Assembly (NCBI GenBank): GCA_008632985.1
Contig: QPGO01000126.1
Span: forward strand, 1-64,000
Reading direction: 5' to 3'
Length of the DNA stretch: 64,000 bases
From: Psammoneis japonica
Lineage: Eukaryota
Position numbers and translations under genes: made by a program. Of this stretch, positions 4,431 through 34,446 are shown in pieces. The notes under the pieces are model-generated. The model was not told the origin of the DNA. It searched no databases and worked only from the letters and a program-made list of their open reading frames with translations. Positions within the stretch are counted from its first letter, which is position 1. Every line of letters starts with the position of its first letter.

Positions 4431-4649
4431 GCCGTCCCTCATTATGTTGAGACCACACCATACCATATATCCTTCCCTCGAGTCTCCCACACAAACTCCC
4501 CGTGGCAAAAACGGAGAATCAACATTTTCCTTGAGAAAGGACGGGTGTTTCGACAAGTCTGCGGTCCACGGGTCGCTACGACAAACTGATTCTACGGAAT
4601 TCACCGCGCACGATTGACTTCAACCAAATGCTTCGCTTTGAGTTTAATG

Positions 4650-5034
4650 TCAATCTTTCTTCGTCATAGTGCGCGGCGGCTGGGTGTCGTCGTAGTACTA
4701 GATAGTGTTGGGATTGGCGTTTTCCCGTACATCAATCACAGCATCCTCGCGTGGCAAATTGACACTATAGTCACAATAATTCTGTTCTCCCATCGTGTGT
4801 GTTCCCAACAAGAGTGAGTGCTCATTGATACGAGGCAATTGTCTCGTCACGGGCAACCACTGGCAAGTCAGCAACGCGGCCATTCCAATGCGTGCGTCAT
4901 GACGGCAATGTCGTACAAGTAAGGAGTGTTTTTCTTCCAAATCTTTCATTCGGCATCAATCATGCGCTCTTCCATGGCTGTCGCAAAGTCAACCTTGTCC
5001 TTGAGGACTGTGCCTGAGCGGTAGACGACGACAT
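4650..5034 (-). pseudogene. N-terminal fragment of RBBP4/MSI1, disabled; copy 2
   Basis: LTCQWLPVTRQLPRINEHSLLLGTHTMGEQNY; direct repeat of 690-1094 with frameshifts. Confidence 0.8.
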
Positions 5035-5799
5035 GGTGGCTGTTTGTGTTGTATTGATTAGGGAGAGTCTATGGTACAGTACCGTATTGGAAGGGGTGGG
5101 TCTGGGGAAATGTGTGGCGGAAGGGTCGCGCGAAGCGCGCTTTAGGGGATGGAGAGAAAAAGGGTGGGCCGAGAGTGCGGACAGACGGTTGAGAGGAGGA
5201 GTTGGTAACAGCAGGGTGGCGGAGTAGAAGGGCTTGATACGTAGAAAGATGGGTGGAAAGAGCAAAGCCGAAGTTAAGACTGAGGATTTGGGAGGCCCAA
5301 AGCGATGGTGTTGAGGTGTGGTGTGAAGAACCGAAGCGGTCTTGAGAGAGTTGTTTCCAGGCCGAGTTGGAGGAGGCAAGGAGATCAGAGGGTGTGAGGA
5401 GTGAGTTGGTGCAGGCGGAAAAGGTTGTTGCAAAAAAGATTTCAGAAAAATGGCATGCAGCCATTGCATTTGGCACATTTCAGTGCAGAAAATCACATGT
5501 GTAGAAACATGCTTGAATCTCAGGAGCGACAATGACAAGACATGGACACTGCTTTCAGGAGGTCTGATTGTCATGCAAGAGTCTTGGTTTGGTGAAAAAC
5601 AGAGTTGCCATTGTGTTGAAGTCAAAAAATGCGTCTTTTCCATTTTTGAGTGGCAAAACCCATGCTTTGATCTTTGTTTGTTAAAGACACCTCCTCTGTT
5701 GCCTGCCATTGCTGGTGTCTCTCTGTCACAGATGCGAAAAGTGCTCACTGTCTTGGGCATGCTGTTTGTGTGATCTGTGGCAAGTGATGTCAGTCGCAA

Positions 5800-7200
5800 C
5801 CGTGTGGTCTCGCATCGGCATTTTGAGACTAACACCGACCCATGCTTTGATGTTTGTTTGTTCCTTTCATCTCTTTGCTCACACTTCTTTGATCAAATCT
5901 TTGCTTTGCAGTTGTGGGAGCATCATTCTGTCTTAGAAGCACAACAACAAATCCACCAAGAAATGCCAAGCAAAGGTTGTGGTTGACGCGTTTGACACAA
6001 TGCCACAGCTCCACTCCACATTGATGTGCGCTGCCTTGAGCCAACAATTTTTGAGCATTTGTGTGGGCGTGAGTGGCGGCACCCCGTTGTGGCCAGGTCG
6101 ATGGGCGTGGAGCACACATTGTTGTTGAGCAAATCCCCAGTCTGCATGCACAGCATGCAGCACACCATCTTGAAAGTGTCCTTGTTGCATGTCTGCCAAG
6201 TGCTGGTTCACGGCAGACAAGTGCTGCAAATCGGTGTCAGCTCTGGGAAACTCAAAAATCGAGTGCAAATCGATGAGAGCACCTGTGTTCGATGTGACAA
6301 ACAATTGCAGCAGCACAGAACAAACAACTTTGCACTTGCCTGCAAGCTGAAGTGGGACCCCGTGCAATGCACAAGCCATTTGGAAAGACTGTGGACAACA
6401 TCTTAATTCTGTGAATGTGTTTGTGGCCCATGCAAACAGATCACTGCATGTCGTCCAAGTCGGGGCACCAAGGAGCATCCACCCAGTCATCAGCTGGCCC
6501 TGTTCCAGGAGTGTTTGTTTCAAAAATTGAACAATCCTCAAAGCCCATGATGTTGAATTCCCCTGGCAGATGAACAAGACCAGGGACATTGCACACTTGA
6601 TTGGCACCTGGGTCAGTCCAAGAAGCAGCCCGTTGCTTCAGTTTGTGCACTGTTGCTCTGGCGAACAATGGAAAATCATCCTCAACCCATCTCTGAAGCG
6701 CTTCTTGCCCAATGACTGGAGCATGTCCATCATCAAGACACATCAAAAACTGCCAGCATCCATGTGACCACCAAGTCAAATCCCTGCCTCCAAAGTGGTT
6801 GTCCACCAACACGGTGTTGTCGAGTCCAAGTGCCACCTCAGTCAAGGAAAACAAAAACAATTTCTCACCAGTGAAATGGCGATGATGCCCATGAACACAT
6901 GGCACAAGAACTGTGTTGGGCAGCTCAAACAAATCATGCAACACTCGCAACTCCTCCACGTTGAATCAAGTCATGTGTTTGGCACAGTTGTCAGAGCAAT
7001 CATTGATTCATTGGTGATGTGTGTGAGAAAAGTCAATGGGACGATGCTCCTCCTCATGTGTCACATCACCAACAGATGAATTTGCATCTGCCCAAATCTG
7101 AGCCACATTGCGACATGCAAAAATGCTGCCCACCAATGCACGTGCAAGAGCAATGCCAAAGGGCTCGTCTGCATTGCCAACTTGCTCTAGATCCAACAAA
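5800..7200 (-). mobile_element. Degenerate PIF/Harbinger-like (DDE_Tnp_4) transposase relic
   Basis: Motifs FTGEKLFLFSL, IMGFEDCSIFETNTPGTGP, GHKHIH.IK.LS.VFPNG and KAAHINVEWSCG across broken frames; TpA- and CpG-depleted. Confidence 0.65.
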
Positions 7201-8234
7201 TGCCCATTTTCCTGATTGCCAACATCAACTCTGGGTGCAATCGAAAGTGGAGTGACAGCTGCAGACCATTGAATGACTGATTGAATGGAGTGCATCCAGA
7301 ACAGACCAGCCCCTCTCATGTTTCTGTTTGTGAGCCACCGCGCCAATTTGCAGTGGTGTCCATGGTGAAAAAGCCTTGGTTGTCTTGGCATGACATGGAT
7401 CACAAGTGCAATGATGATGCAAAAAGTGTTTCTTGCCTTGGCGGATGAGAACCTGCAACCCCATCGTCAAAGCATCAAAGTGCAGGCCTGGAGGCCTGGT
7501 TGAGGGTTGAAGCTGATTGGGCCGGCAAATTGTGATTGAGTCGAGTGTTGAAGCACAAATGGATGAGAACCCTGGACCCATGACCCGCAAGGGTCAGCAA
7601 GAACACTCTCCAGTGGAGAGCAGCTGGCTGGACAGAGAGAGAGAGTGGTGCAAAATTTCTGCCAACGGAAAGTGAAAAGGATGGAAAAGTTGATTTTGGC
7701 ATGAAGAGAGTGTCTTTGCCACACTGCAAGTCGTGACATTGAAAGAGAGCAGTGAATGGATGGAATGCATGTGCAAATGTTTCACGTGCACACATGTGCG
7801 TGAGAGAGGACATCAGAAAATTAGAGATTTTTTTGGCGGGAAGCTGTTTTGTTGATCTTCAGGAATTCTGTGAGACAAACCAAGACAAAAACCTTCCGGG
7901 CTCAAGCAACAGATGGAAGATAGAAAGATCTCAATGGAGGATCTTAACATGAGTGTGCAGAGTTGATTTGTCAACAAATGTTTCAGAAAATTTTGATGAT
8001 CAACCAATCATCACCATGGTGAAAAAGAATGGCATGATGGTGCCAGAATGAAGAACAAACACAGAAAATCTCTGTCAGTCTTAACACAGCAATCAGCATT
8101 GTCTGACATCACATGAAAAGGATTCAAGGACACAGACCCATGCAAAGAGAACAAGCACCGATCACCTTGATCGGGCAGCTTCAACAGATGATTGAGGATG
8201 ACACAAAGGCTGGGTTTTTAGACCAACCTGACAA

Positions 8235-8730
8235 CCGCAGGGTGGCAGACCTGAACAGTGTCAGGCTGCATCAACAGAATGCTTGCATTCTGACATTCAG
8301 ATCAGACAAAATGAGGTGGATTGAGATGACAATCTCAGTCAACTGGATTGCTTGGATCACCCAGATCCAGCATGATTTGAGAGGGCAAAGGCCAATTTTT
8401 AGAGCAACCTCCTGACAATTGCAGGGTGGTGGACCTGAACAACATTGGGCCACATTGACAGGAGGATGCTTGCACTCTGACATTCAGATCAGACAAAACA
8501 AGGCTGGATCGAACTGCAATCCATGTCGACTGGCTTGCGGAGAGTGCCCGGATCCAGTGCAATCTTAGAGGCATCTGAGGCGGCGGGAACATGATCCCAA
8601 ACCATGCCAACAGCAAAACCCAACTGCAATGCTCGCACTTCAACAACATCTGTTGAAGTCAACGAAGACAACACAGGTGCATCACACACAATTGGCTGGC
8701 TTGCGGAGATTCTCTGGATCCAGCACAACG
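8235..8730. repeat. Degenerate tandem repeat, period about 190 bp
   Basis: ctgacattcagatcagacaaaa at about 8290 and 8477; tggcttgcggaga...ggatccag at about 8531 and 8697. Confidence 0.6.
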
Positions 8731-9400
8731 CGTGATCAACAGACAGATTGTGGTGGCCAGATCAATTGATCAATGCCAAACCACAGGACAATCAGCACCA
8801 CATCCAATGCATGGGCAATTGCAAGAGGCACACCAATCAGTGGAAACAATTTTTTCAGTGTTGTCGGCCCACATGTCGGGTTGACGCAACTGATCCCATT
8901 GTCACCGGAAGTCTGCCAAACACAATGAGGGGAACTGGGGGGTGGCCTCTAGTCATCGTCCATCTGTCTGTGCTGCCTTCTGCTGTGCGCTTCCATCCCA
9001 CGGTGACTCCTCCAAGAGTTCAGCCACCCACAAGGTGTCCTCTCCTTGTGCTGGGCCCACCATCTTGGCACCAACAAGAAGCAGAAAAAGGCATGGAGGA
9101 TTTGTGAAAAAAAAAATTCTCAGCTTTCTCATTGTGCAAAGTCCAAAATGGAAGAGTTCTGGGTTCTGCAATTCTTTAAGAACAGTTGCAAGATTTCCTG
9201 CACTCAATTGGCACTGTCAGAACAACGTCAATGGAGACCAACATTTATCAAAATGCTTGTTGTTGTTCTCTTGACATGAAAACGAGTGGTTCATGGTGCT
9301 CTTGTGCAAGCACAGCAGAGCTGCTGGTTGTTTGCAACATTGTCAGCATTGTTGAGCTCCCGAGAAATGAGGCGGCACTTTTGGTCAACCTGTCACGTGA

Positions 9401-9423
9401 TGTGTGTGTGTGTGTGTGTGTGT
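9401..9423. repeat. (TG)n microsatellite
   Basis: Direct reading. Confidence 0.9.
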
Positions 9424-9758
9424 TGCACAACATCACACAAAAGAGAACTCACAATGAGAATTGCCACAGCTGAAATGGTGTGGCGCTTGTGATTCATCTT
9501 GACGCTTGTGATTCATCTTGTTTTCAGCATGCATGGCAGGTGCTGAACATGGCAGTGTGGAGCAGTGTGCCTTGGCATGTGCTCACTTCAGACAAAATGG
9601 TGTGGGGATGGTTTCCCATCAGTGCTGGTTGAACAGTGGGGACCGGTTGCCACGGCGACGAGACTGGNACTTGCGATGGTTCTGGTGCCTCGTGCAGCCA
9701 AACGTTTGGCTTCACGCATGCTTGATTTAAAGACTGGTTTGAACATGGCCAACCAGTT

Positions 9759-12700
9759 TCAAATCCAGTGAGCAGAGTGTGACAGGTGTTCTTCTGCCGA
9801 ATCAAGGAGGAGCGCCTTGTCTCTCGCAAGACAATCGTCTGTACGAGAACAAATGGCCTTGACCTCTGCTTCTGCGTCTCGTCTTTGAGACGACATCCTC
9901 GTTTCCGAATCGTGCCCGTGCACAGCGTCGTTGTGAGCATCCCAGAGGTCCCACCACTGCTCCCACATGAAATTCCCAATGGTTGCAGCCCAATCCAGCC
10001 GTTTCTGTTGATCTGAGAGAGTCCGACAAATGCCGCTCGACGAAAGGTGAGAGGTTTGCGTCGCATTCCACTGGACAGAAAAACGGCCATCAAACAACTG
10101 ACGCCAACCCATTTCCCCTTGGGAATGAAATGCGGGCACGACGCTGTGATGAAATTGTTCCGAGTGCAAAAGCTCGCCTCGAAACCATGCTTCAATGGCC
10201 AAAATTGTCAAGTCTCGTAAGGAAGGAGACATGTGAATGTCATCGCACTTCTTGCGCAATCCTTGTAAAAATTTTCTGTGCCAGGCTTCATCATGAGGGC
10301 AACGGAGAATGTGATCTCTGTCTTCCATGGGGTCCTGACAGTGAATGCAACAGTCCGGACGTGTCGGATTGCATCTGTGTGCAATCTTGTTGGTGGGCAG
10401 AAGATCTTGAACCAGCTTGACGGTGCTGACTTTTCGACGAATGTTTCGCGACATCAATTTCGAATGAACGTCCCAATCAATCGATGCGCACACTTCGTCG
10501 GACCAACCATGTTTCTCTTTCATGTGCTGAACCAGTGCGGGACTCGACGCCTGACATCTGACAACCGGCTTGCATTTGGAAGAAACAGTGGCTCCTTGAA
10601 GAAGCAGGTTTGCTCGGCAATGAGGCATGCGGGGAGCAGCAAGAGTGTCGCCCGTAAAACGACCTTGGAATTGTCCAGCGAGTCTGTCGGCATGCATGTT
10701 CAACTTCGCCGCTTGAGAGAGAGAGTCAATGGGAAGGACATCGTCTTGGTGTCCCTTCGCCCAGTGAATCTCGACTGTGGGACACGACAGTTCATCAGTG
10801 CGTGTTTCTGACAGCTGTCTTGGGGAATGGAAGACCTCATTGACAATGTCCCAATCCGGAGAGAGAGCATTGGCAATGTGAAAACGCCAGTGGAAGTCTC
10901 CTTGGATCTCCTCCTCATCAGCAGGATGAGGAATCACCTGGAAATTTGAGATGGTGCGAATGAGAGCGGAATTGTCGCAATGCAAATCGGCGCCGCTGAC
11001 CTGTGTAGAACAACAGTCTGACAATCGGATCAGAAAACGGAGAAAAGACAGCAGACCGCATGCCTCCGCACGACAAGACGATGGGCGAAAACCGAAAACT
11101 GGACCGGCACAATCCACAAGAGGAACCCCGTCGATCGCAATCGTCCACCCGAGTGCACCTTTGAAATGGAGGACCGAACCGTCGCTAGCTGCTGAAACCT
11201 TGTGGGTGACGAGGAGCTCAGCGATTTCAAACACAGACCGATGCAAATGCAATTCTTCGAACAGAGCAGATTCCCACCGAGGAAGAGACCGCAGCACAGC
11301 CAAGAAATCACTCGGGACGGGAGGGACTGTCGGCAAGGATGCTGGAGAACCGAATGACTTGATCCGCCACAAACCGGTTGTAGTCGTATCCACTGGCACA
11401 GGGGAAGCAGCTGGGGAAAGATCTGGAACATTTTCCAGAGCGGCGAGAGTCTCCGCACAACCTTGGTGCACTGGGAAAATCTCGAAACCCGAATCTCCAC
11501 GAACACACAAGCAATCCTCGGAGGATTCGTAATGTGCGACATGTGTCATGCGCATTTCCGTGGCTGGCACAACCCATTGACCTAAAGGGTGTCGTAGATC
11601 GAGCGAGTCTGGTTTGCAAAACAAGGAACAGGCTCGACGCCACTGTTTCCATGCCCGAGCGGATGGACGTTGTTGTTCGATGGGATTCAGAGTGCTGCGA
11701 CTGCTGAGAAGGAACGATCGGCCGTTCACTTTAAAGGGATCGAGCGAAAAACCATCCGGAGAGGCAACATCTGATGGAGTCAAAACATTTGGATAAAGAC
11801 GACAGCAGTTGACCCACCGCATCTCACGATTGCTGAACGCCTGGGATTGAAGCACAACGTCCATGATGCATTGGTCGTTGTCTCGCTGGAGTGGAAGCAC
11901 TCCAGCATGATCACAATCGATGGTGGCATCGATCCGGGCCAAGAATGAACGCAAGGACATGAACCATTTCGATTCGGAATGAGGGAGCTTGGCATGGACG
12001 TCCTGAAGAAAACTCACACCTGCACCAAGCTGCAACTGAATCCATGATGCAGCGATTCGCGACAACACCTGAGGTTGCCCAGAGCCCCGCCAGTGGGTGA
12101 GAAACTGCAGAACCTGCACTGCACCCTGTTCCACGTCTAAAGACCTGAAACAACCGCCTCCCAGGGAATGAGGTCCGAAGAGGACATCACGTTTCGAGTT
12201 CCGATTGCACCCGCATTTGGCAAAAATGGCACGCATGGCCTTCCTCTGTACTTCGAGCAACTCTTTCTCCTTGAAGTGAGTGTTCGGGAGAACATGCGTG
12301 GTTGCAGACAGATGACAAGCAAAATGGTGAGTCCATGACTCATGTCGATCTAAAGGACAAGACCAAAGGAACAGGGCAATGCCGTCACTCTTTTGTTTCA
12401 GAGCCGAGTGCTGGGTCTTTTGAGTCCCCGCTGGAGCTTTGCAGTGTCCAAGTGTCGTGTGAGAAGAGCATGCGGACAATTGTTTGCTTGACCCAGTCGT
12501 GGCACGGTCTGCAGAAGAGATTTCAATGTCAATGTCCTCGTTGTGGGGTCGAAGGCAAGGTTCGCCGTCCTCTGCAAACATCCATTCGACAGCGTGGAAG
12601 GAGCATTTGGGCAATTCTAGCTCGTGGCCAGCCGCGCTCAAAAGGTCGCACCACAGTTGATCATCTTCCTGCATCTTGAAAGCCAAATCGAGGATGCAAG

Positions 12701-15599
12701 GTTGAGGACTCGAACAAAAATCGTTCACCTGCTTGGACGTGTCGTCGACATGTCCTCCGTTGAACATCTGCAGCGAGAGGGAGTGATCTGGGGACTCGAA
12801 AAATGCACCATGTGCCCATTGATCGAAGATCTGGAACAGACTGTTGCAAATTTGGTTCCAGCAAAATGGAGAGTTTCCACTGCCCTGTCCTGTTCCGCAA
12901 ATGGGGAAGTCATCAGAGTGAGAACAAGAAGTCAGTGACAGGCCCAGCACTGTTCGCAACCAGCAGCAAGCCTTGTGAACAGTGGCGCCAGCGACTTGAG
13001 TGACTTCTTTGGGCATGCCATTGCTGCGGCTCTCAATTGCAACCAGAGCGGGAATGTTCCGATCGCAACACGATGTGCAATCATCATCGCTGTGAATGGC
13101 AGATTTTCGGGAGGCACGGCTGATCTCGAGCATGAGTTCTTCAAGGCACACAGGAGTGTTGGCATTTAAGAAGGCGCGAGTGCCGTAGATCCCCGAGTTG
13201 TGTGATTGGCGGTGTTCCATGTTTTGGGCCAGAGTGCGCCACTTGACGCTCGAGATTAATTGAAAGTCAGCTTCGTAGATGTGGATGACACGGAGCCGAT
13301 GCATCTTGTTGTTGCCTGGCTCTTTAAAGATCATCACATTGACAACATCTTGCCAGCGGTGAAAGGAGCATCCCCAACGAAGGGCACAGTTAAGCAGATT
13401 CAACCTGATTTGAATGAGGGATTGTTGAACTTCATCGAGGGCCTCACGTTCAGGGGTGGGATTGCCTTCGGAATCAGTTGCATCTGAGAACCGATGAGGA
13501 GCATGCATTGCTTTCCAATGACCTGGGTGGAGGCCGGAGCAAATGGACGTGGAGGTGGATTCTTTCCAACGTTTTATTTTTCCTTCGAGATCTGATGCAG
13601 ACAGAAGATTCGGTGCAGAGACTGGGGAACGGTGACGCAAGTGGTTGATGAAAAGGGCAGTTGCTTCGTTCAAAGCCGACGTGTCACACTCACCATCAAG
13701 AACAAGATCCGCCATGACAGTGTCACCTTCACAGCCTGGGTCCATGGATGACGGAGGTGCCGTTGGAGGGGTGCCTTGTGCCTGACCGAAGTGTTTTTGA
13801 TTGCGTTGACGGAGAGCAGTGGCTGCCTCTTCCGGAGCGTCAACAGTGGTCCAATCTTGACATTCTTTGGGAGGAATGGAAGGATTGCTGGGAACTTGGA
13901 CACTCTGAATGCCTGTGTCCCTCTGAGTGTGGCATGAGTCAATCTTCCTGAACAGCTTTTTCATCTCTTCTGCCTTGCGGATGTTGCGCAAGACAGTTGC
14001 CTGTTTACGTGACTCCTCAGTGCCTTCCAGATCGAGTGCGGCTGTCCTCTCGGAAACTTCCCTTTCGCGGTGTGCGACACTGTCAGCCGCCAATCGCTTG
14101 CAATCGTCTTGAGCAGCGCGTGGCGCCTCTTGACAACCTTGTGAAGTGTCGGGGACAGTGAAGGATCCACTCAGTTTGTCTCGCATTGCTCGAATCTGTG
14201 ATGCACAGTCCAATTTTGTCCTCATCATGGATGCGAGGTGGGAAAAGACACACACCCGGTACCTCAGGTCTGAAAGTTCAACCGACCAGTCGGGTTCGCG
14301 ATGAGTTCGGCATTTCTTGGCAGCAGAAAGAGAGAACTGCAGGAGATCACGGTCCAACCGTTCAGCCAGAGCATGATCTGGAGCATCAAGTTCCAGTGGC
14401 TGGAAAGAGTGTTGCAACACCGAACGACTCTGAATCATTGGGCCGATTGCCTGTAGACAAGAGGTGAGCTGTGGTTTAGACGTAGCCTGAATGTCCCTGA
14501 AGGATGCCTTGGGCAAATTGACAGTCGGGTTGCCGAAAAGAGCTGCGGTGTCAAAGTCCACGAAGTGAGCACAATGATCAGAAGTGACTCGATGTCCAAA
14601 GGCTTCACATCCACCGAAGCGAGCTGCAGCAAGAGCGCCAGGAGAGGCTGGTGCGCAGTCAAGACGCCGGGAACCTCTGGCACATGTGGAGAACTCAGTG
14701 TCGCCCATGATGTTAAACAGGACGTCAGACAAATTGAAGCGCTGGGCAACGGCAGCCAAAGAGTCAGTGTCACAGGTGAAATCAGTGTCAAAGTCCCCAA
14801 AAATGATGACTTCTCGATTGGAATCCGCCAGAAAATCCTGCAAGACTCGGGATGAGTCTGTACAAAACGCCTTCCTGGGATCGAGTGACCGGCGCCCCAA
14901 TTGCCGGAGGAGGGCCAATTGTTGAGCGTACGCCGTTGTCTTCCCTGGGTGTTGTTGGTTCTTGGCGCAAACTCGACAGCAAGAGACAAACACAACTTGG
15001 CGTCCATTCCCACCGTCGAAGACTTGAATTGACCACCTGCCGAGTGGGTCGGATTCTTGAGTCCGGAAGCGAGCAGAAATCGAATTGCATGACAACAAGG
15101 CCGTTCCACCCGGTTTGCATTGCATTGCAAAGGTGGTGGAACTGCTTGAAAAGGCAGACCGCCCATGATGTAAAGACTTGGAAACAGCAGATCCACACAC
15201 GGACAAAATGTCGAATTGGGTGGTGTCGAGGCACACCTCCGAGATGCCAATGACATCGGCTTGAATTTCGGAGGCGAGTTGACAGCACTCGTTCACATCA
15301 CCGCCACGCTTGTCGAATTTACAACCGTTGGCATTGAAGGCGTAAAGGCGCGCATGGTGAGAAAGCTTGGGCCGGAGTTCGTCGCCCACAGGTGCGTTGG
15401 TCTTCAGTCGAGAAAAATCCATCCGACGATCTGTGGGAGGGTGGTGACTGCGTCCGTCTAGGATGTTCTGCCAAGCAAGAGCTGGATCTTCAGCAGAAGG
15501 CGAACGACTCATTGTTGGGCCATGCTCCTCCGAAGAGAAGACTGAGGCTTGGAGCACTGCATTGACTTGGTGTTGGTTTGGAAGGAAAAACTCCGGCAT
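9759..15599 (-). CDS. Retrotransposon ORF2: APE endonuclease, reverse transcriptase, RNase H and C-terminal Cys/His knuckle; probably non-functional
   Basis: APE: N.NG, ISE, GDF, RLD, SDH. RT: KEPGN.K.HRLRVIHIYEAD, SCCDR, GTGQGSGNSP, GHVDD. RNase H: ASDGS, RAEA, CDN, KGHQD, N.HAD. Knuckle: CIHC..EDRDHILRC. The reading frame continues past the TGA at 9759 to about 9670. Confidence 0.9.
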   Translation of the reverse strand: MPEFFLPNQHQVNAVLQASVFSSEEHGPTMSRSPSAEDPALAWQNILDGRSHHPPTDRRMDFSRLKTNAPVGDELRPKLSHHARLYAFNANGCKFDKRGGDVNECCQLASEIQADVIGISEVCLDTTQFDILSVCGSAVSKSLHHGRSAFSSSSTTFAMQCKPGGTALLSCNSISARFRTQESDPLGRWSIQVFDGGNGRQVVFVSCCRVCAKNQQHPGKTTAYAQQLALLRQLGRRSLDPRKAFCTDSSRVLQDFLADSNREVIIFGDFDTDFTCDTDSLAAVAQRFNLSDVLFNIMGDTEFSTCARGSRRLDCAPASPGALAAARFGGCEAFGHRVTSDHCAHFVDFDTAALFGNPTVNLPKASFRDIQATSKPQLTSCLQAIGPMIQSRSVLQHSFQPLELDAPDHALAERLDRDLLQFSLSAAKKCRTHREPDWSVELSDLRYRVCVFSHLASMMRTKLDCASQIRAMRDKLSGSFTVPDTSQGCQEAPRAAQDDCKRLAADSVAHREREVSERTAALDLEGTEESRKQATVLRNIRKAEEMKKLFRKIDSCHTQRDTGIQSVQVPSNPSIPPKECQDWTTVDAPEEAATALRQRNQKHFGQAQGTPPTAPPSSMDPGCEGDTVMADLVLDGECDTSALNEATALFINHLRHRSPVSAPNLLSASDLEGKIKRWKESTSTSICSGLHPGHWKAMHAPHRFSDATDSEGNPTPEREALDEVQQSLIQIRLNLLNCALRWGCSFHRWQDVVNVMIFKEPGNNKMHRLRVIHIYEADFQLISSVKWRTLAQNMEHRQSHNSGIYGTRAFLNANTPVCLEELMLEISRASRKSAIHSDDDCTSCCDRNIPALVAIESRSNGMPKEVTQVAGATVHKACCWLRTVLGLSLTSCSHSDDFPICGTGQGSGNSPFCWNQICNSLFQIFDQWAHGAFFESPDHSLSLQMFNGGHVDDTSKQVNDFCSSPQPCILDLAFKMQEDDQLWCDLLSAAGHELELPKCSFHAVEWMFAEDGEPCLRPHNEDIDIEISSADRATTGSSKQLSACSSHTTLGHCKAPAGTQKTQHSALKQKSDGIALFLWSCPLDRHESWTHHFACHLSATTHVLPNTHFKEKELLEVQRKAMRAIFAKCGCNRNSKRDVLFGPHSLGGGCFRSLDVEQGAVQVLQFLTHWRGSGQPQVLSRIAASWIQLQLGAGVSFLQDVHAKLPHSESKWFMSLRSFLARIDATIDCDHAGVLPLQRDNDQCIMDVVLQSQAFSNREMRWVNCCRLYPNVLTPSDVASPDGFSLDPFKVNGRSFLLSSRSTLNPIEQQRPSARAWKQWRRACSLFCKPDSLDLRHPLGQWVVPATEMRMTHVAHYESSEDCLCVRGDSGFEIFPVHQGCAETLAALENVPDLSPAASPVPVDTTTTGLWRIKSFGSPASLPTVPPVPSDFLAVLRSLPRWESALFEELHLHRSVFEIAELLVTHKVSAASDGSVLHFKGALGWTIAIDGVPLVDCAGPVFGFRPSSCRAEACGLLSFLRFLIRLSDCCSTQVSGADLHCDNSALIRTISNFQVIPHPADEEEIQGDFHWRFHIANALSPDWDIVNEVFHSPRQLSETRTDELSCPTVEIHWAKGHQDDVLPIDSLSQAAKLNMHADRLAGQFQGRFTGDTLAAPRMPHCRANLLLQGATVSSKCKPVVRCQASSPALVQHMKEKHGWSDEVCASIDWDVHSKLMSRNIRRKVSTVKLVQDLLPTNKIAHRCNPTRPDCCIHCQDPMEDRDHILRCPHDEAWHRKFLQGLRKKCDDIHMSPSLRDLTILAIEAWFRGELLHSEQFHHSVVPAFHSQGEMGWRQLFDGRFSVQWNATQTSHLSSSGICRTLSDQQKRLDWAATIGNFMWEQWWDLWDAHNDAVHGHDSETRMSSQRRDAEAEVKAICSRTDDCLARDKALLLDSAEEHLSHSAHWI

Positions 15600-15624
15600 C
15601 GTGAAGTCCGACGGAAAATTGATG

Positions 15625-17365: not shown

Positions 17366-17449
17366 GGTGTGTCGGCAGTTCTGCGGAGAGCGTGGTGCTA
17401 AAAACACGCAGGCATGTTCAGTGCAAGCAATCGCAGAATTGTCAACAAC

Positions 17450-19700: not shown

Positions 19701-20024
19701 GACCACTGTTTGATGCGTTCGATTGTCAAACGATCAAGAGTTTGTCCGGGGGACTTTCTTGACATGTGTGTGTTCCAAACAGTGCAATTGATTCATTTGT
19801 CAAGTGTCCATTGCACAGGCGTCCCCTCAGAGCATCTGAAAAGTGTCGTCATCGTCACAGTGCGTTGCATCGCGCAAATCGCAAAAATTGCACGACCGTC
19901 GACTGTCCGACATTGCAATGCTGCGCGCGACTTCTGCGCACACCTTTCCGATGATTGTTCGCATCCCGCCCAGAGCATCGAAGATCCACCAACATCTCAC
20001 TTGCTTCACAATCATTGAAAGACA

Positions 20025-21395
20025 ATGACGGACTCCAGTTTGACGTTCCAGTTGATCTACAGTGACGGATTCAGTGGCAATTCGAAAGAGTTGCTCTGGG
20101 AATTTTACTCTCTCGCTCTTGCTCCATTCGCTTTCGGTGCTCCTGCCGAGCAAGTCCAACTGTTTCTCGACAATGGGCTCCTTGACTTCTCTGACGATGT
20201 CCTTGACAATGGCGTTCGAACTGTGGGGAGTGGCAGCATCGAAACCCTGCCATGTTTCCCGGAATCTCATGAACAGCATTTCAGAACGGTCCACGGTGCC
20301 GCAAGGATCGTGGAGGATGCAAAGAGTCTTCCCTCCTGTTCATTTAGAATTGTGTCGGGCCATGGCTTCAGTGGGTTCGCTGGTGGTCATGTTCAGTTTG
20401 GAACAAGCATTTGCCATTTTGCCAATTTTGGATCAGCAGCACCCCATTTGACAATTCTCGACATGTGCAATTCCGCACATGCGCTTGCTTCCTTCATGGG
20501 AAATTTCCCACTGGAGAATCCGCGGCGTTTCAACAGCAAACACAGGGCAAAACATGTCTTTGTCAAGGACCCAAATCTTCCCGTCGCTTGCGATTCGAAC
20601 CCACACGTTTGCGCCTTTAGGATCGGGGTTGTTGGACAACACCTCAAAGAACACTTTATCTTAAACGATGACGTGCCGGGCATGTCTCTTCCTGTGGGGG
20701 ACTCCGTCACGTCCAGTGCAATTGCTGCAGTTGGTGAACATGTGCAACAACCCATTGACCGTTGTCACTCATTGGACGATTTGTTCATCGCCAAGTGCAG
20801 TGACAACCTCAAAACGGTTTGTCTCGCGTCAGATCACACACTCAAGCCATTCTGTAATCTCCAAAAGCTCCAGCAGCTTGTTGATGAACACAAGATCCAG
20901 ATCAACACGACGGTTTTCGATTGTGAAATGTTCAATCGACAAAACGAATGGTTCCTGACCTTTGAGCTGGCTGTGAACCTCTCTGTTGACCAGGAAGACA
21001 TGGCCAAGGACATTGTCGATTTCATCATTTCATGGATTGTCTCATGGCACAACAAACACCCCAATTCTGATGTGGAGTCTCTGGAGGCACAGGATGCCTG
21101 GACGAAGCTTGCCCGAATGATGGGCCCCCATCAGCAAATGCTGACTCATGTCCACATTGGACAGAATGAAACAACCCAACAAACATGTGCATCTGCCGAA
21201 GATGAAGGCATTGAGGTTGAATCATGGGTGTTGTCTTGCGAGTCGCTGACTGGCTGCATCGGCCCCGTGAGTCGGAAGATTGAAGCGGGCAGTTTTGAGC
21301 CATTTGTGGAAGAAGACGATGATGTCAAGGAGAAGAACAAATCCCTTGCCAGTCAAAAGTCTGGTGACTCAGGTGTTGTTCCTGCTCTTGTTTGA
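20025..21395 (+). CDS. Hypothetical protein with a possible clan CD (caspase/CHAT-like) His-Cys dyad; TpA-hypermutated
   Basis: 456-aa ORF; IVSGHG and LTILDMCNSA motifs; very few Tyr. Confidence 0.45.
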   Translation: MTDSSLTFQLIYSDGFSGNSKELLWEFYSLALAPFAFGAPAEQVQLFLDNGLLDFSDDVLDNGVRTVGSGSIETLPCFPESHEQHFRTVHGAARIVEDAKSLPSCSFRIVSGHGFSGFAGGHVQFGTSICHFANFGSAAPHLTILDMCNSAHALASFMGNFPLENPRRFNSKHRAKHVFVKDPNLPVACDSNPHVCAFRIGVVGQHLKEHFILNDDVPGMSLPVGDSVTSSAIAAVGEHVQQPIDRCHSLDDLFIAKCSDNLKTVCLASDHTLKPFCNLQKLQQLVDEHKIQINTTVFDCEMFNRQNEWFLTFELAVNLSVDQEDMAKDIVDFIISWIVSWHNKHPNSDVESLEAQDAWTKLARMMGPHQQMLTHVHIGQNETTQQTCASAEDEGIEVESWVLSCESLTGCIGPVSRKIEAGSFEPFVEEDDDVKEKNKSLASQKSGDSGVVPALV

Positions 21396-22029
21396 TGTGG
21401 CGCCAGGGCCAAAAGCGATTTGACCATCAGACCGCAACGTGGGTGTCTGACACTGCGAGAAATCTGAAATGAATTCATTCCAATGAGAGCTGTCAGCACT
21501 CAATTGCATTGTTTCCATGGTCAATGCAAACAAAACACAAGTGCTTCAATGTGCTTTTAAACATCCCAGCTGTTTGGAAAGCCATTGTCCATCTGCTGTG
21601 TAGATCAGCATTTCTGTGCAAGATTCGGCACATGAATTCTGCGTGAGAAAACATTTCTTCTGACATCATTCTCATCATGTCATCAAGGCTCCCTGTTTCA
21701 CACCTGCAAGCCCCAAATGTCCCTCTTTTCACTTGCTGGCTTGCCAAGCTTGCTGTTCTGAGCAGTGACCTGATTGCTGTTGTTCCAGTGCTTGCAAGTG
21801 TGCAACCTGGTCAGCAGCTGGTGAAGACAAGATCCACATCCTTGGAAGCAAGATTTTCTCCCACAGATCTTGCGCCACCAACATCACATCCTGTTTTGAA
21901 TGTCGTGATCATGTTCTTTGCTGTCATGGTGTGCATGTTTTGCATTCTTTCCAAAGGAAAGCAATGACCTCCTTCCAGTGCAGCCCAATTTAGACCAGTT
22001 GTCTCCAGCGGGCATCGCTGCAAAGTGGA

Positions 22030-23920
22030 AGTGCTCTCACAATCTATTTCTAAGGGAATGACAACAACAATGGATGAGGATGACAATCTTTCCAAACAAA
22101 TCCTCGCGGAAATGGCACAAGCTGCGGGACTGCCAATGCTGTGGTTGTTGCGTTGCAATTGCATCTCTTGTCAAAAAGGACACCACAGCTGCGCCAATGC
22201 AAGAGAAATTCATTTGCACAAACTTCATGATTTGGTTCAGCTGCCACACAAAATTGGCTTGTTGCATCAACTTGGAGTTTTGAGCTTGGGGGTGTGCTTC
22301 AAGCTTGAGTGGATCCCCCCTGAAATTGGTCAGCTGCAGCGACTTGAAGAGTTGCACTCATCTTGCAACCCAATCATTTTGTTGCATTGCCCAGTGAAGT
22401 GTGCAAATTGAAAAGCTTGAAGGTGTTAAAATTGCTCAAATGCCATGGTCTTGAGAGTTTGCCTGTGGGAATTGGGCAGCTGAAGCAACTCAATGTCCTC
22501 AATCTTTGGGAATGTGAAAGTCTCAAAGAGTTGCCAATGGGAATTGGGCAGCTGAAGCAACTGAAAACTCTCAGCCTCAGCTGCTGCAGAAGTCTCAAAG
22601 AGTTGCCAGATCAGCTGTGGCAGTTGACAAACTTGGTGGAGCTGGATTTGCATTGTTGCAGAGCTCCCTGACTCAGTTGTCCCCTGAAATCGGACAGTTG
22701 CAGCAGATCAAGAAACTTTGTGGCAACTGCAAGAAACTCACGAAAGTCCCAATTGAGATTGGGAAGCTTTCATAACTGCAAGAACTCAAACTTTGTGACC
22801 ACTCCAGTGGCTTGGATGAGTTCTTGTAAATCGCCATGAGCAACTTGGTCAATCTGACAAGGTTGGATCTCAGCGGTTGTTCCGAACTTGTTGAGTTGCC
22901 TCCCAAGATGGGATTGCTCACAAAGTTGGAGTGCTTGGCTCTGGAGGGGTGTGAGCAGTTGACGTTGATTCTAAAAGGAAATCCTTGAGCTGCCAAGTCT
23001 TCATTGTCTCCACTTGGATGGTTGTTTGTTGCTTGCAATTGCTCCCAAGGACATTGGAGAAGCTTTGCACTCCATTCAAGATGTGCACATGCCAATGAAT
23101 GACCAAGATGAAATGGGTTGCCACACCCAAATGAACAAAGCAGGAAGACACTTGCTGCACTGCCACAATGTGCCAGCAGCTCTTTGGCCGCATGTCTTGG
23201 CAGGTCCGTGCAGCGATGAGAATTTCATTTTTTGGTTCCTGACAAACAATCTGGACTTCGTCAAGACAGGAGAAATCAAGGAACAAGCACCCTCGCATCA
23301 TGAGCAGTCAGTGGCAGTTCTCAGGTGAATGCAGGCAGATGTGCAAGTTTCAGTGCAACTTCTGATTGTTGTCCATCATCATTCCTTGCTGCTGGAGCAG
23401 ACACCATTCACAGATTGTGCCAGCAGCTCTGATGTGCCTGTGAATGCTTGGAGCACTTGTTGGGATGCGGTGCCCTTGACATGACATTGCACTTCATTGG
23501 TCCTTTTTGGAATGTTTCTTGGGGTGCAAATGCTGACATCGATGTGACTGGCCACACCCGTGGCCTGACTTTGACAAAAATTCTTGATCGCACACTGTCC
23601 TCTTGCATCTTGTTTGATCTTCAAAGGATGCTGTGACAGTTGCTGTCTTTGCTTGATGACAAAATGGAGCTCAAGAGGAGAGCATCACTGGCAGTTTCAT
23701 TCTTGGATCCCAGCATGAAGCATGACACATGTTTTTGCGACTTCATCTGGCTGCATCTTGTCCACTTCGGAATTGGGCCACTGCCGAGAATGGCGGTAGA
23801 GAGGCACATTCAATCCCTGGCCAAAATTGAGTGAGACAGCATTGTTGGTGCCCATGGTGTTGAAGTTGGCATCTGCAGTGGACATGACCAAGTTTGTGAG
23901 GCACAAAAGCGTCAGTGCAG
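22030..23920 (+). repeat. Segmental duplication of about 1660-3630 (LRR gene plus about 0.65 kb downstream)
   Basis: Homology continues past the stop, e.g. aaatggagctcaagaggagagc at about 3361 and 23662. Confidence 0.9.
22070..23286 (+). pseudogene. Degenerate paralogue of the LRR gene at 1702-2943
   Basis: Collinear nucleotide homology with frameshifts and stops; systematic TA->CA/TG and CG->CA/TG changes. Confidence 0.92.
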
Positions 23921-24865
23921 CACACCCCAAACAGCGGCCATTTGCATGAGACACCAGCGGGACAATGCAAACCGAGGCGTTTCTTGTGCCCCAATCACCA
24001 TCGCTGTGTTGTTTGCTCTGGGCACAATTCAGAGTAAAAAATTGTCATGTTCACCACAGACAGTGTCTTGTTGCAGTGCTGTCATCTTTTGATTGCAGAA
24101 ATCAGGCACTGGTCTGCACGTTTGGCACTGCTGGAAAAACTTGGGTGGCTGAGCAGTGCCCCCACCTTGCCGACAGACGAGGCCCAAGTCGGGTTGGATG
24201 CACTCTCCAATGAAAACGCAACAATGACTCCCATTGGAGAGTGCCCCATGAAGCGATTTCACCCCCATGAAGGATCTTGCCTTGCATTGGTGACTTTTTC
24301 AGATGCAATGGCAAGAAAAGCAGGAGCAAGGAAGTTCTTGTGCACAGTTGCTTGCATCTCAAGGGCTCTGGGTCCTCTTCCACACATCGACATGCCACTC
24401 TTTTGCACACTTGGAGGAATGCAAGGCAATGGATGCCTGTTGACAAATTGTGAAACATGCTCTGGTCACATTTCACTTTAACCGTGACTCTCTCAAAATC
24501 ATTGACACGTTGGCTGCCGTGATTTTGGCATTGTCACAGCTGGACACAACCACGCAAGTCCACAATGACGACTCAAAATTGAAAGAGACGCCGATTGGTC
24601 ATCTCAATGCCACTGCTCACTGGCTTTACACGCCTCTTGAGGTCTTTCAGGTCATTGCAATTGTCTCCGGAACCATTCACTCCATCCTGTGCGGAAATCC
24701 ACATTATGTTGACCCCAGTCAGACTGAGGCGACATTTTGGTGACGTGTCAGGCTCTCAGTCATGACTGATGTGCATAACAATTTTATTATTTTGGGGTTC
24801 GGTCATGCAATAATTGTCGTTATTATGGTTGTGGAACGTCATGATCAATTATAAAAAACGTCAGC

Positions 24866-27379
24866 ATGAGACATTTTCAACCTCACAAAAAGCGATACTG
24901 GAAGCTGCAAGAGGCCTCCGGTTCAAATTGCTCTCGTGTGCACTTTTTTCTGTGGCCACCTTCCTTTTTAATTTTTCTCGCGATTGCTTTCAGAATGCAC
25001 ACACGGAGCGGTCCCGGAACGACTATGACGACGCTTGCCAACCAGCAACGGGCCAGAGGCATGCGCACCAGGCATAATGCTAGCCGCCTGAGGACTGAGC
25101 AACAACTTATGGGGCCTCTGGTGCATCCACAGCAGCTTTCTGGTGTCAACCAGCGAATGATGTCTGAAACAGTGCTGAACATCGCAGATCAGAATACGGT
25201 CGACAACAACAGTCTCGCGTTCGACCCAAAGAAGGATGAATTCAGGGCGCATTGTGAGTCAAAAGCCGCTGTTGGTGATGACACCACACACCTTGTTACA
25301 AAGGAAAAAGTGCACGAATTTATGTTCCATCAGGCATTCCGAGAAAGGAAGAAACAAGGTGGGAAACGAAAGCGTGGCGAATCGGAACCGACGGGCGGCA
25401 ATTTTGATACCTCCAATTTCCGTACAGTTATCCACACCTACCAAAAAATATTTCAAGAGTGTCTTCAAGGAACAAGGAGTGAAATGCCGGAGCCGCAAAA
25501 CCCGGTCGGCCACAGTTTGATGGCACAGTGCAAATGCGCTGTCAAACACATTCACACGCGGCAGGTCGCTCAGAATGCAAACTCGCTTCCATGGGAATTT
25601 ATTTGGACGGAAGACACAGAAAGGCTGATGAAAATGGTCAGCAATCGCAAGGAAAGAATCAACAAAAAAAATTACAAAGAAAAGATTGACCACGATTTTG
25701 CACCACATGCAGCCATTCAAGAGCTGGACTCGATCGAATCGTGCTTGTGGAAGAGTGGATACAACACCTCTCGTCAGGCTTTCTGTGGCTTAAGAAACCG
25801 TTGCTGCTTCTTACAGACTTTCTCAGGGATTCTACGTGGGGAGTCAGTCTACAAAGCAGAGCTGTCCGATCTCTTGTGCATGAAAATGCAGAAAGATTCC
25901 GACCCTCACCCTTTGACGCTTCTCATCATGCAGACAGCTACGGGAAAGACAAACAAAGGTGTGAAATTGTGTGGCCGCAGCATGAGGCACCTGAATCCCC
26001 TCCTTTGCTCTGTGGGAAGCCTTGGATTCATGTTGCTCTATCGATTCTACCTGACTGGGGAAATGGACCAGCCGCCCGACTTTACCGACAACAAGTCGTG
26101 GTTCGACATCAAGCTTCTGGTGGACTCCAGAACCACTGACAACACCGTGAACATCTCTGACGCGACTTGTGGTGATGCCATGAAGAAAATTGGAAAGGAG
26201 GTGGGCATTCCCATGAACCACTGCGTCCATTTTGGGAGAGTCCTCGGAGCTGTTGAAATGGAGTTTCTAGAGCGTCCCAGCGAAGAGACGCGAACCCTTG
26301 GAAACTGGGACCCAAAGACACAAGAGAAGTTCTACTCTACAAAATTGCCCATGCCATCCATCCGAGCCAAAGGTGGGTTTCACAAAGCCAACGGCATGCA
26401 TTTCAATCCCAGAACAGTGGTTGAGCCGCCAGAAGAGCTCCAGGCGACCACATTTCCATTTGTTGAAGAGTCTCACAATGCTGTGGTGACTTCCATGGCG
26501 CAAAACAATGCCGCTCATCACACCGCCATCAACTTCTTGGTGCTGTTGAAGGAGCTTCGACGAGTGATTCTTCAAGATGCAGCAGCCATTCTAGAGCTCC
26601 ATCCCGAGCGATCAAGGCACCCGCTTTTTCAGATGGAGGTGTTTCAGCATCCACTGTTTCTGGAGTTTCGTCAAACCATGCGGGAGAGCCTGCAAAGCGC
26701 CTCTTCTCCGGCAGACTCAAGCCTCTCTGCTGTCCTCCCAGGAGTTCATGAGCGACTCTCATCTCTCAGTCACGGGCAGCAGCAGTTGGAAGCTGGTCAG
26801 AAGCGTCTGGAGAGCAAGCTTGATGGCTTTGTTGGCGAGTACCGTGCCAATGAAGGAGCCCGGTCGGCAGCAGCAGGACAGCTCACACTGGCTGCCAGCA
26901 GCTTGCTTCATGGCAGAGGACTCTCCAGAGCTGGCGGCAGCGCTCAAGTTGGTGCAGGAGGGAGCTCCAGGGTGGAAGAGGGGCCCGGCAGCAGCACTGA
27001 CACTGCAGATACTGGCATCACAACAGCAGCTCCAGAGGGATTTGGCTACAAACCACCGCGTCAAAACCACTCTAGCGTTCAGTCGATTTACGACCAGTGG
27101 CATGGCTTGAGCGCGTTCAAGGACAAGCCTGTGGTTGGAGGGCTGGAAAAGATGGAAAGCGACCACAAATGCATATGGCGGAAGGACTTTGATAAAGCCG
27201 ACTCACAGTACTTTTCTCGAGTCAAGCGCATTGTGAAAGCGATAGACTCGCTACGAAGCGCAAACCCGCAGAAGACGGCGAGTGTCATCATTGAAGAAAT
27301 GAACACAATTTACAAGGCTGAAGCAAACCAAAAACTTTCTAATTTTGTCAAGGTGTTGAAGGATAAGAACTACATATGA
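24866..27379 (+). mobile_element. Crypton (CryptonF-like) tyrosine recombinase with Ndc10-II-like and C-terminal GCR1_C-like domains; true start probably ATG 24995 or 25026
   Basis: Catalytic-type motifs ILRGES, GKTN, HFGR, LGNW, FYSTKLP; MRH.NPLLC.VGSLGF; C-terminal SVQSIYDQW..GGLEKME..WRK..YFSRVKRIV. Confidence 0.85.
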
Positions 27380-27410
27380 ATGGCAAGTGGCATGGGGGAG
27401 ATAGCGACGG

Positions 27411-28156: not shown

Positions 28157-28652
28157 TCCCAAAACCCCCCACGAGCTCATGGTGCTACTGTTGTGATGTG
28201 TTTTCCGGATCCGATGGCCGTTTCCGGTTCGGTACTCATCCTACTTATTTTCTACCTACGGTGTCACGGTGTACACAACTAGGAGAGAATCGTTATTCCA
28301 GTGAGTCAGAAATGCAAGTGGGCCGCGTAGCGGCCCACGTAGAGAACATACCACACGAGTCATGACCAGTCATAAATAATGGACCAGAATAACGCTTCAT
28401 TATTTGAACATGATCGTCTACATGTGGTCGTGGGCGGCCCCGCAAATCCAGTCGTGGGCGCCCCCGCCCAATCAATCCACGTGAGTCCATGTGTCGACCG
28501 TCACAGCATTTTAGGGCTACGGCATCTACTGTATCGGCAAATCGGCACGCATCGTCGATCTTATTTTTTGTGTATTTATCAGTAAGGTTTATTTAGGGCT
28601 ACCCTCTTTGAGCTGCTCACTGCGTGTATAAGTAATAGGAGTATTTCCTACA

Positions 28653-34189: not shown

Positions 34190-34446
34190 CTTTATCAGGC
34201 TTATAGTGCAGGTACTGTACTATTGTAGTTCACCTCTTGCACCTTGCAGATTGCAGAGCGATCTTTTCTCTGAAAGATCGTGCCGAAACTTGGGGGAAGT
34301 CTCCAGCCAGCTGCTGGCTGAAAAAATTCTGTCCGTCAGTGCGTTAGGGGTATAAAATTCCACGACCCAACGCACTGTTGGCGCAATTTGATGCCCATGA
34401 CGATGGCAAAAGACGGCTCCCGGGGGCTTCTATTTTGTGTACTACA

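Follow-up and report, generated by a model that had tools for sequence, protein, structure and literature searches.

What could strip almost every TA dinucleotide from long stretches of a diatom contig and spare the genes that lie between them? The question is raised by a 64-kb window of Psammoneis japonica (contig QPGO01000126.1, positions 1 to 64,000), the whole stretch of DNA analysed here and the scope of every count below that is not assigned to another source. Our reading, to which we give a probability of about 0.8, is that transposon-derived DNA in this diatom underwent in-place hypermutation of TpA to TpG or CpA at the DNA level. We infer that this would be the same process as the TpA hypermutation seen to arise de novo in the chlorarachniophyte Bigelowiella natans (Mettrop et al., bioRxiv 10.64898/2026.01.13.699255, April 2026).

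The proposed course of events is as follows. An A:T to G:C transition would occur at TpA, on one strand or the other. It would act on whatever lies in an affected stretch, be it a retrotransposon, a DNA transposon, a captured host-gene copy or DNA that is now single-copy, and would halt within a few hundred bases of neighbouring genes. The process would run to near saturation, with CpG decay following in the same DNA.

Composition of the blocks

Ratios of observed to expected dinucleotide counts (o/e) were computed from base composition in sliding 1-kb windows, and block limits were set at TA gaps. Four TA-erased blocks, 31,326 non-N bases altogether, were delimited in this way and set against three host segments of 28,557 bases. 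Block 1 (5276–24479) covers 19.2 kb, with o/e of 0.072 for TA, 0.58 for CG and 1.61 for CA+TG. Block 2 (46400–47732) has 4 TA where 79 are expected, and block 3 (48705–52920), which consists mostly of high-copy repeats, has 18 where 291 are expected (CG o/e 0.30). Block 4 runs from 57204 to the window end at 64000 and holds 14 TA against 395 expected, with a CG o/e of 0.16. A partly erased stretch at 24480–27400 (+ strand; TA o/e 0.30, CG 0.72) contains a Crypton-like open reading frame (ORF), 24845–27376, which is discussed below.

In 1-kb windows the TpA o/e is 0.01–0.17 across 5501–24500, 0.15–0.35 across 24.5–27.5 kb, 0.05 at 46501–47500, 0.05–0.10 at 48501–53000 and 0.02–0.06 at 57501–64000. 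The mean CA/TG o/e of the TA-poor stretches is 1.3–2.1 and reaches 2.6 adjoining an N run. Most host windows have a TpA o/e of 0.41–0.85; lower host values occur over a leucine-rich repeat (LRR) gene (0.28–0.33 at 1501–3000) and in windows crossing block edges (0.25–0.33). The pooled blocks contain 123 TA against 1967 expected (o/e 0.063), the pooled host DNA 1215 against 1928 (o/e 0.63). This difference within the window, 3.9 versus 42.5 TA per kb, has a Poisson probability that underflows to 0. A preliminary description of this DNA had pictured the blocks as near-free of TA and flooded with CA/TG, and the counts bear it out. The TA-free run that it had placed by eye at about 18490 to 19460 proves to be a 974-bp gap with zero TA between 18488 and 19462. 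The interleaved host genes, which it had called normal in TA and Tyr, are so by count: Tyr content is 2.6–4.4% in host genes, against 0–0.6% in ORFs within the blocks.

A feature not stressed in that description is the depletion of CpG in most blocks. The pooled CpG o/e is 0.46 in blocks versus 0.94 in host DNA, and the minimum, 0.03, is found at 17.5–19 kb. CpG is retained (o/e about 0.7–1.0) at 9.5–17 kb and 19–21 kb, where GC content is 0.51–0.55. In block 1, older DNA that is poor in CpG alternates with younger inserts of normal CpG content.

The missing dinucleotides can be accounted for. Measured by host o/e, the blocks are short of 1117 TA and 937 CG, 2054 in all, and their CA+TG surplus is 1982, so that the books balance if both dinucleotides were lost by single transitions. 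The TA/(CA+TG) ratio in the blocks has fallen to 0.019. The polarity is opposite to that of fungal repeat-induced point mutation (RIP), as had been claimed, with TpA down to an o/e of 0.063 and CA+TG raised to 1.68. When the window is tested for membership of the B. natans type by cut-offs on TpA and on CA/TG, the stretches at 5.5–10, 17–19.5, 21–25, 48.5–53 and 57.5–64 kb pass both, and 10–17 kb, with a CA/TG o/e of 1.3–1.5, passes the TpA cut-off only.

Direction and level of the change

An intact LRR gene with its downstream DNA (1665–3653, +; ORF 1603–2943, which matches Pfam LRR families) is not part of any block and provides the unmutated reference for a TA-erased, CpG-decayed copy at 22035–23949 (+) in block 1. 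The two align over 1992 columns with 77% identity. Not one of the 72 TA of the intact copy is kept in the erased copy: 32 have become CA, 26 TG, and 14 show further changes. At sites outside TA and CG the pair differs at 289 of 1647 positions (17.5%), and at this ordinary divergence 48.9 TA would be predicted to survive. The excess of TA to TG/CA over other change, which the preliminary description had made a check of its claim, is therefore present, with 58 of 72 TA turned into CA/TG. Four duplicate pairs outside the blocks, used as a control, retain 21 of 38 TA (Fisher p=1.5e-12 against 0 of 72). CpG has decayed in the same copy, 56 of 99 CG being CA or TG and 20 being kept.

The same direction is seen in proteins. 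An ORF of 1966 aa at 9759–15659 (−), probably of a non-long-terminal-repeat (non-LTR) retrotransposon, with putative endonuclease, reverse transcriptase and RNase H-like regions, has a TA o/e of 0.11 and a CpG o/e of 0.84. Its 55 homologues, 1224–2073 aa long, come partly from metagenomes and partly from the diatoms Epithemia and Fragilaria; many carry Exo_endo_phos and a few RVT_1 or zf-RVT. With the six best relatives (1560–2018 aa) it aligns over 77–98% of its length at 39–41% identity. PF03372 is found in three of these six, and PF14529, PF13966 or PF00078 in others of the 55; the ORF itself, unlike its relatives, has no Pfam match even at E<=0.05. Tyr makes up 0.4% of its residues versus 2.4–4.4% in all 55 homologues, and Cys 4.2% versus 1.2–2.7%. 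Conserved-Tyr columns were defined by at least 70% Tyr among the 31 homologues longer than 1800 aa (from P0007–P0041). At the 29 such columns the ORF has Cys 17 times, His 4, Phe 4, Tyr 3 and Asp once, encoded by TGT (9), TGC (8), CAT (4), TAC (3), TTT (3), TTC (1) and GAC (1). Other conserved residues are intact (Trp 28/28, Asp 33/33, His 16/16). Directly upstream, at 15755–17455 (−), lies a 566-aa ORF with 0.4% Tyr, 6.0% His and 4.1% Cys; from its position alone, it is probably ORF1 of the element.

A 458-aa ORF of unknown function at 20019–21392 (+) is 75% identical to its closest named protein, from Amphora coffeaeformis. Where this relative has its 13 Tyr, the ORF reads His 6 times, Cys 4, Tyr 2 and Asn once, and no position has changed the opposite way. 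Of the 10 changed sites, an outgroup with 36% identity has Tyr at 4 and His or Cys at none. Similarly, the Crypton-like ORF 24845–27376 (+) matches NDC10_II (PF16787, E=1.1e-32) and GCR1_C (PF12550, E=1.7e-05), a domain pair that we take to mark Cryptons, and a search at E<=0.001 gives it 2432 relatives. Tyr is present in at least half of 40 full-length relatives at 11 columns, and in these the ORF shows His 3, Cys 2, Phe 2, Tyr 2, Ala 1 and Met 1. When 37 relatives are used and the cut-off is set at 60%, 8 columns qualify, where the ORF reads Tyr 1, His 2, Cys 2, Phe 2 and Met 1.

Two of the 150 listed Crypton-like representatives are themselves Tyr-poor (0–0.2%): P0129, from a Logan assembly, and P0110, from JGI/IMG, of which P0214 is a longer cluster member. 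They are 27–31% identical to the ORF of the window and to each other. At the 11 conserved-Tyr columns P0129 has Cys 7, His 3 and Phe 1, and P0110/P0214 have Cys 5, His 2, Tyr 1 and three others. To judge by these proteins, the same erasure is present in other public assemblies, where such ORFs are annotated as proteins.

The mass balance and four polarised comparisons, together with negative controls that are normal, support the direction TpA to TpG/CpA on the evidence of the sequences. This agrees with the earlier view that TpA was removed by TA to TG/CA transitions while neighbouring genes were spared. The possibility that the blocks are TA-poor by nature, because of codon bias, foreign origin or pressure from a nuclease that cuts at TA, or became so in heterochromatin by ordinary neutral decay or biased gene conversion, is in our judgement very small. 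TpA is indeed mildly under-represented everywhere, the host o/e being 0.63. Nevertheless, relatives of three different elements are normal in TA and Tyr, and the source LRR gene has TA exactly where its copy has CA/TG, which argues against a native TA-poor composition. TA loss in the copy is total, compared with 17.5% divergence at other sites. The adjoining non-coding host DNA keeps its TA, and the contrast between block and host therefore does not come from codon selection. For biased gene conversion, no dinucleotide specificity is known.

A second alternative is that RNA of the transposons was edited from A to I by an ADAR-like enzyme and the edits were fixed by reverse transcription. A U upstream of the edited A is usually favoured by such enzymes (10.64898/2026.01.13.699255), and in the non-LTR ORF Tyr to Cys, the outcome of a sense-strand A to G change, outnumbers Tyr to His by 17 to 4. 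However, over the same ORF the sense strand has 476 TG and 529 CA, a balanced count in which TG is not in excess, and strand-coordinated runs are absent. The erasure has also reached a Crypton-like DNA transposon, a host-gene copy that is collinear with its source and the DNA downstream of it, and single-copy non-coding DNA, and the mutations of B. natans arise directly within integrated DNA that is single-copy (10.64898/2026.01.13.699255). RNA editing is thus highly improbable as the source. Since a DNA transposon, a collinear duplicate of gene plus flank and the single-copy DNA at 57.2–60 kb are all affected, and since strands alternate at random, the change is at the DNA level and not at the RNA level. 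Both strands are affected, and the choice is made site by site without strand-coordinated runs: in the LRR pair the CA and TG outcomes fall in 30 runs, where shuffles give 29.7 +/- 3.7.

Could the missing TA be an error of sequencing or assembly, in which modified bases of heterochromatin were misread as TG or CA? The affected DNA is probably modified, given its CpG decay, and the read sets at hand are three runs (X1–X3) of one sample, probably that of the assembly. Even so, k-mer contigs of run X1 reproduce the TA-free DNA, which includes single-copy sequence, at a k-mer depth of 55–62 over unique DNA. A 7153-base contig spans 53038–60000 with 2 differing letters, another covers 51510–53033 with 0 differences, and 44598–47081 is covered with 6. 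Contigs of such depth and length need accurate reads, which makes miscalled modified bases in the consensus, the artefact that the preliminary description had asked to be checked, very unlikely. The erased LRR copy is diverged by 17.5% at ordinary sites too and is thus an old, real paralogue. Moreover, the Tyr to Cys/His signature recurs in proteins of other data sets, and in B. natans lines resequenced with Illumina such mutations can be seen to arise (10.64898/2026.01.13.699255). We regard an artefact as the least credible of the explanations weighed here. Most paralogous contigs of a repeat family have TA at 49453 and 49568, where the copy in the window has CA, and CG at 48625 and 50742, where it has TG. 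Less-mutated copies therefore exist elsewhere in the genome. The state of 49453 and 49568 looks like an ancestral TA that went to TG or CA separately from copy to copy.

Other observations concern the reads. In the host DNA at 41336–45998, 6 of 22 listed sites that differ between X1 contigs and the window are TA in the window and TG/CA in the reads, with 1 the reverse, and TA sites make up only about 8% of positions; the differences may reflect variation between alleles, with a TpA bias that extends at a low level to DNA outside the blocks. In run X2 one contig passes straight from 40226 to 40311, which fits an 84-nt intron (40227–40310) in the gene at 39407–41527 (−) and is consistent with X2 being RNA-derived. 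Over 46.0–60 kb, which includes a gene containing RHS repeats, the summed X2 depth is 0–1.1 in all bins except 56.0–56.7 kb (2.2); the depth is not used as evidence of silencing.

Edges, islands and neighbouring genes

The edges of the blocks are sharp, and may be chromatin borders or insertion junctions. The unit of targeting may be a chromatin domain or each inserted element, and the process may either defend the genome or be a by-product of silencing. At 46399, 52920 and 57203 only a few hundred bases separate DNA of host-level TA density from DNA with none, and erased DNA begins about 0.3–0.4 kb from each end of the RHS-repeat gene. This gene occupies an island of normal composition at 52921–57203 (−; TA o/e 0.73), which could be a protected gene or a late insertion. 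Its ORF, 53196–56786 (−), is uninterrupted over 1196 aa and has a bacterial-type architecture, with DUF6531 and seven RHS-repeat matches.

A second island lies between blocks 2 and 3 (47733–48704), with a TA o/e of 0.78 and a summed read depth of 2700–5100, which marks it as high-copy. It belongs to an element at 47655–48565 resembling a miniature inverted-repeat transposable element (MITE), with an AT-rich interior and 22-nt inverted repeats at 47655–47676 and 48544–48565 that are 95% complementary. Where the right arm reads TA, the left arm, itself within TA-free DNA, reads CA. This high-copy insertion, probably younger, has escaped erasure. Three facts show that the process is not simply repeat-induced: the LRR source gene has stayed intact, duplicates that lie outside the blocks have been spared, and the high-copy island is TA-normal.

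In block 4, the DNA at 57.2–60 kb is single-copy by read depth (62). Within the same block, 59001–61500 is strand-asymmetric, with 37–42% C versus 14–17% G on the + strand; this C-rich stretch adjoins a 223-N gap (61827–62049), and no tandem repeat was detected there.

The earlier description had seen unrelated elements and host-gene copies in the blocks. This largely stands, with the probable non-LTR element, the Crypton-like ORF and the LRR copy. The Harbinger-like element, in turn, could not be upheld beyond a sub-threshold match to DDE_Tnp_4, a Harbinger/PIF-type transposase family, in the ORF at 5936–6637 (−), which has no Tyr in 234 aa (E=0.0053, 16.8 bits versus a cut-off of 24.8). Among 93 block ORFs searched against Pfam at E<=0.05, only the LRR copy gave a clear match, and the other weak matches were noise-like. 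For one host protein the nearest Atlas clusters are diatom, and a host-gene search gave as best match an unnamed protein at 78% identity. Outside the blocks, two intronless host ORFs were noted. The ORF at 28632–30959 (+) has a mandelate-racemase/enolase-type domain and a zinc alcohol dehydrogenase, and that at 31133–34219 (−) a methyltransferase, a 6-phosphogluconate-dehydrogenase-type NAD-binding domain and a 2OG-Fe(II) oxygenase.

The changes leave reading frames open. A TA to TG/CA transition yields a stop only from TAA (to TGA), and never a new in-frame stop. Stop triplets in the blocks number 1.7 TAA and 1.1 TAG per kb, versus 8.7 and 8.9 in host DNA. Such an ORF-preserving change explains how a 1966-aa ORF can stand in a dead element and have no Pfam match while its relatives have them. 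Dead elements therefore keep long ORFs but lose Tyr (to Cys or His), ATA-encoded Ile, TATA-type signals and TAA/TAG stops.

Rate, possible agent and known systems

TpA loss is faster than CpG decay, since the non-LTR insert has a TA o/e of 0.11 and still a CpG o/e of 0.84; no stretch of the window has a CpG o/e below 0.5 together with a TA o/e above 0.35. With 0 survivors among 72 TA, the LRR pair sets a bound of k*t>3.2 per TA (rate times time) against 0.175 per ordinary site. This bound and the TA/(CA+TG) ratio of 0.019 suggest that erasure is roughly 20–70 times faster than ordinary transitions. Double flips between TG and CA are found at 25 of 314 sites (8.0%), versus 29 double transitions at 1486 control dinucleotides (2.0%). 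The erased LRR copy now has 8 TA, all of them new, where the intact copy shows CA, CG, TG or other bases. Such double flips are expected if newly arisen TA is pushed again to TG/CA, and together with the new TA they speak for long-lasting activity.

The TA that survive are not a random sample by context. In the CpG-poor, older parts RTAY makes up 0 of 65 surviving TA versus 32% of host TA, and YTAR 40 of 65 (62%) versus 14%. A model in which the 3′ neighbour (T>C>G>A) sets how readily the A of each strand is hit gives a good fit to ten tetranucleotide classes. Applied to strand choice, this per-strand model failed and was rejected, because the favoured strand was hit at 20 of the 40 informative LRR sites, where chance predicts 20 and the model 30.7. 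All 14 YTAR sites of the source LRR copy were erased like the others, and among the TA remaining in the partly erased Crypton stretch YTAR is not enriched. There is a weak hint of a 3′-pyrimidine effect, TAT codons being mutated in 19 of 19 cases versus 12 of 17 for TAC (p=0.016). Tyr to Cys and Tyr to His changes stand at 35:18 when outside proteins are included (p=0.027) and at 23:13, not significant, in the window alone. From this we conclude that the flanking bases exert their effect on the duplex, or when new TA are created, and not via a simple single-strand preference.

What chemistry might be responsible? We rank first, though tentatively and at somewhat less than even odds, the deamination of adenine in 5′-TA-3′ DNA, with an ADAT2/TadA-like enzyme as the agent. 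TadA/ADAT natively acts on A34, which follows the invariant U33, a 5′-UA-3′ context. The main rival, which we hold to be unlikely by comparison, is a symmetric modified base at the palindromic TpA, such as 5-hydroxymethyluracil (5hmU) made by TET/JBP enzymes, a derivative of it, or N6-methyladenine, which would be miscoding or misrepaired. An epigenetic mark would then have cast a mutational shadow on TpA, as 5-methylcytosine does on CpG, and the outcome would be the same by another chemistry. A symmetric mark suits both the random choice of strand at each site and the duplex-level flank effect, and the same DNA has lost both TpA and CpG. The repeats of dinoflagellates are enriched in 5hmU, its inhibition activates marked transposons, and older work found a preference for replacing T in TA and TC (PMC11572971). 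Against it, the non-LTR insert lost TpA but kept CpG, so that the two marks, if both exist, are not strictly coupled. A broader form of this idea, doubtful and clearly less likely again, is that TpA is a second epigenetic dinucleotide in algae of the SAR group (stramenopiles, alveolates and Rhizaria), bearing a symmetric heritable mark (for example 5hmU-like) on silenced DNA, with erasure as its shadow. It would explain the random strand choice, the duplex-level contrast of RTAY with YTAR and the sharp domain edges.

Several points weigh against the proposal of in-place hypermutation shared with B. natans. Both the term hypermutation and the rate estimates are read back from end states. A high-copy, TA-normal MITE-like element lies inside the domain, and low-copy duplicates outside the blocks are untouched; repetition is therefore neither sufficient nor, for the now single-copy DNA at 57.2–60 kb, demonstrably necessary. 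A simple single-strand enzyme with a flank preference is unsupported by the strand-choice test in the LRR pair (20 of 40). Run X1 excludes error of consensus or base calling, but probably is not independent material. Finally, no relative of the non-LTR ORF among those compared is erased. When alignment A1 was used as metagenome query, 80 environmental DNA loci encoding relatives were found, with a TA o/e of 0.39–0.85 (median 0.66, compared with 0.11 in the copy of the window), and none of them has a 1-kb window with a TA o/e below 0.3. A metagenome scan with the erased protein as query gave 23 pattern matches, of which 0 were confirmed. With 0 of 55 protein and 0 of 80 DNA relatives erased, either the process is not general to diatoms that have the family, or erased copies are rarely assembled.

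Should the proposal hold, its consequences reach beyond this locus. A saturated signature in a diatom would turn a single-species curiosity into a possibly SAR-wide way of disabling mobile DNA, and an A:T to G:C mutator at TpA may be widespread in marine algae. Diatoms combine good genetic tools with large ecological weight. Gene callers will predict long Tyr-free "proteins" from the dead elements, and a mutator of polarity opposite to RIP alters the reading of repeat age and GC content in such genomes. If the agent is a natural DNA adenine deaminase acting in a double-strand context, it would also be of interest to base-editing research.

Among known systems, fungal RIP is alike in that dinucleotide-specific transitions at the DNA level wreck transposons and duplicates and leave neighbouring genes intact. 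However, RIP changes C to T at CpA and creates TpA and stops, whereas here TpA is destroyed and no in-frame stop can be created. In RIP duplication is the trigger and both copies are mutated; here it is not the trigger, as the source LRR gene keeps its 72 TA and an intact ORF, outside duplicates keep 21 of 38 TA, and repeats of normal TA content exist. Methyl-CpG decay gives the same products, TpG and CpA, in the same blocks and at a palindromic dinucleotide on both strands. It is slower (TA o/e 0.11 against CpG 0.84 in the non-LTR insert) and cannot remove TpA; putative decay of this kind, seen in the CG o/e of 0.16–0.58 in the blocks and in the 56 of 99 LRR CpG that became CA/TG, accounts for the CpG loss only.

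Editing of animal retroelements by ADAR or APOBEC is likewise a deaminase-type hypermutation of mobile elements, and ADAR prefers a 5′ U. These enzymes act on RNA or single-stranded cDNA and leave strand-coordinated clusters in retro-copied DNA only, whereas here DNA transposons and duplicated genes are affected and the strand is random at each site (30 versus 29.7 runs). Dinoflagellate 5hmU resembles the present case as a transposon-associated silencing mark in another SAR lineage that older work reports to favour T in TA/TC (PMC11572971); unlike it, 5hmU is a modification and not a reported mutation signature, and in the literature searched no evidence was found that diatoms have it.

The closest system is that of B. 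natans, where TpA-specific hypermutation of integrated viral DNA was described (10.64898/2026.01.13.699255). In 15 mutation-accumulation lines, two integrated viral regions received 231 of the 302 new single-nucleotide mutations, and 230 of these 231 were A to G or T to C on TpA, at about 1000 times the background rate and in only some lines. The genome also has 124 TpA-poor, CpA+TpG-rich clusters enriched for reverse transcriptase and DDE domains, and the authors propose an ADAT2-like DNA adenine deaminase. Their preprint makes no mention of diatoms, stramenopiles or CpG (10.64898/2026.01.13.699255). A full-text literature search, which covered few subscription journals, returned it as the only description of TpA hypermutation, and none for diatoms. 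The earlier statement that no such system had been described therefore holds for diatoms in the literature searched, and has to be qualified by the 2026 report of the same signature in B. natans.

The likeness is close. In both organisms TpA alone is affected and turns into TpG or CpA depending on the strand, the change stays within foreign or mobile DNA while the remainder of the genome (here, of the 64-kb window) is normal, and TpA-poor, CpA+TpG-rich clusters carry reverse-transcriptase and DDE-transposase domains. There are also differences. The host there is a rhizarian, here a stramenopile diatom; the targets there are giant-virus or virophage inserts, here mainly transposons and a host-gene copy. 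Erasure is near-complete here (o/e 0.03–0.07) compared with 0.45 in the region of B. natans derived from a nucleocytoplasmic large DNA virus (NCLDV), and CpG decay accompanies TpA loss here. The de novo rate was measured there, and here end states only are seen. What P. japonica adds to B. natans is thus the host lineage, the saturation, the range of targets, the coupling with CpG decay, the persistence of the process and the preservation of ORFs.

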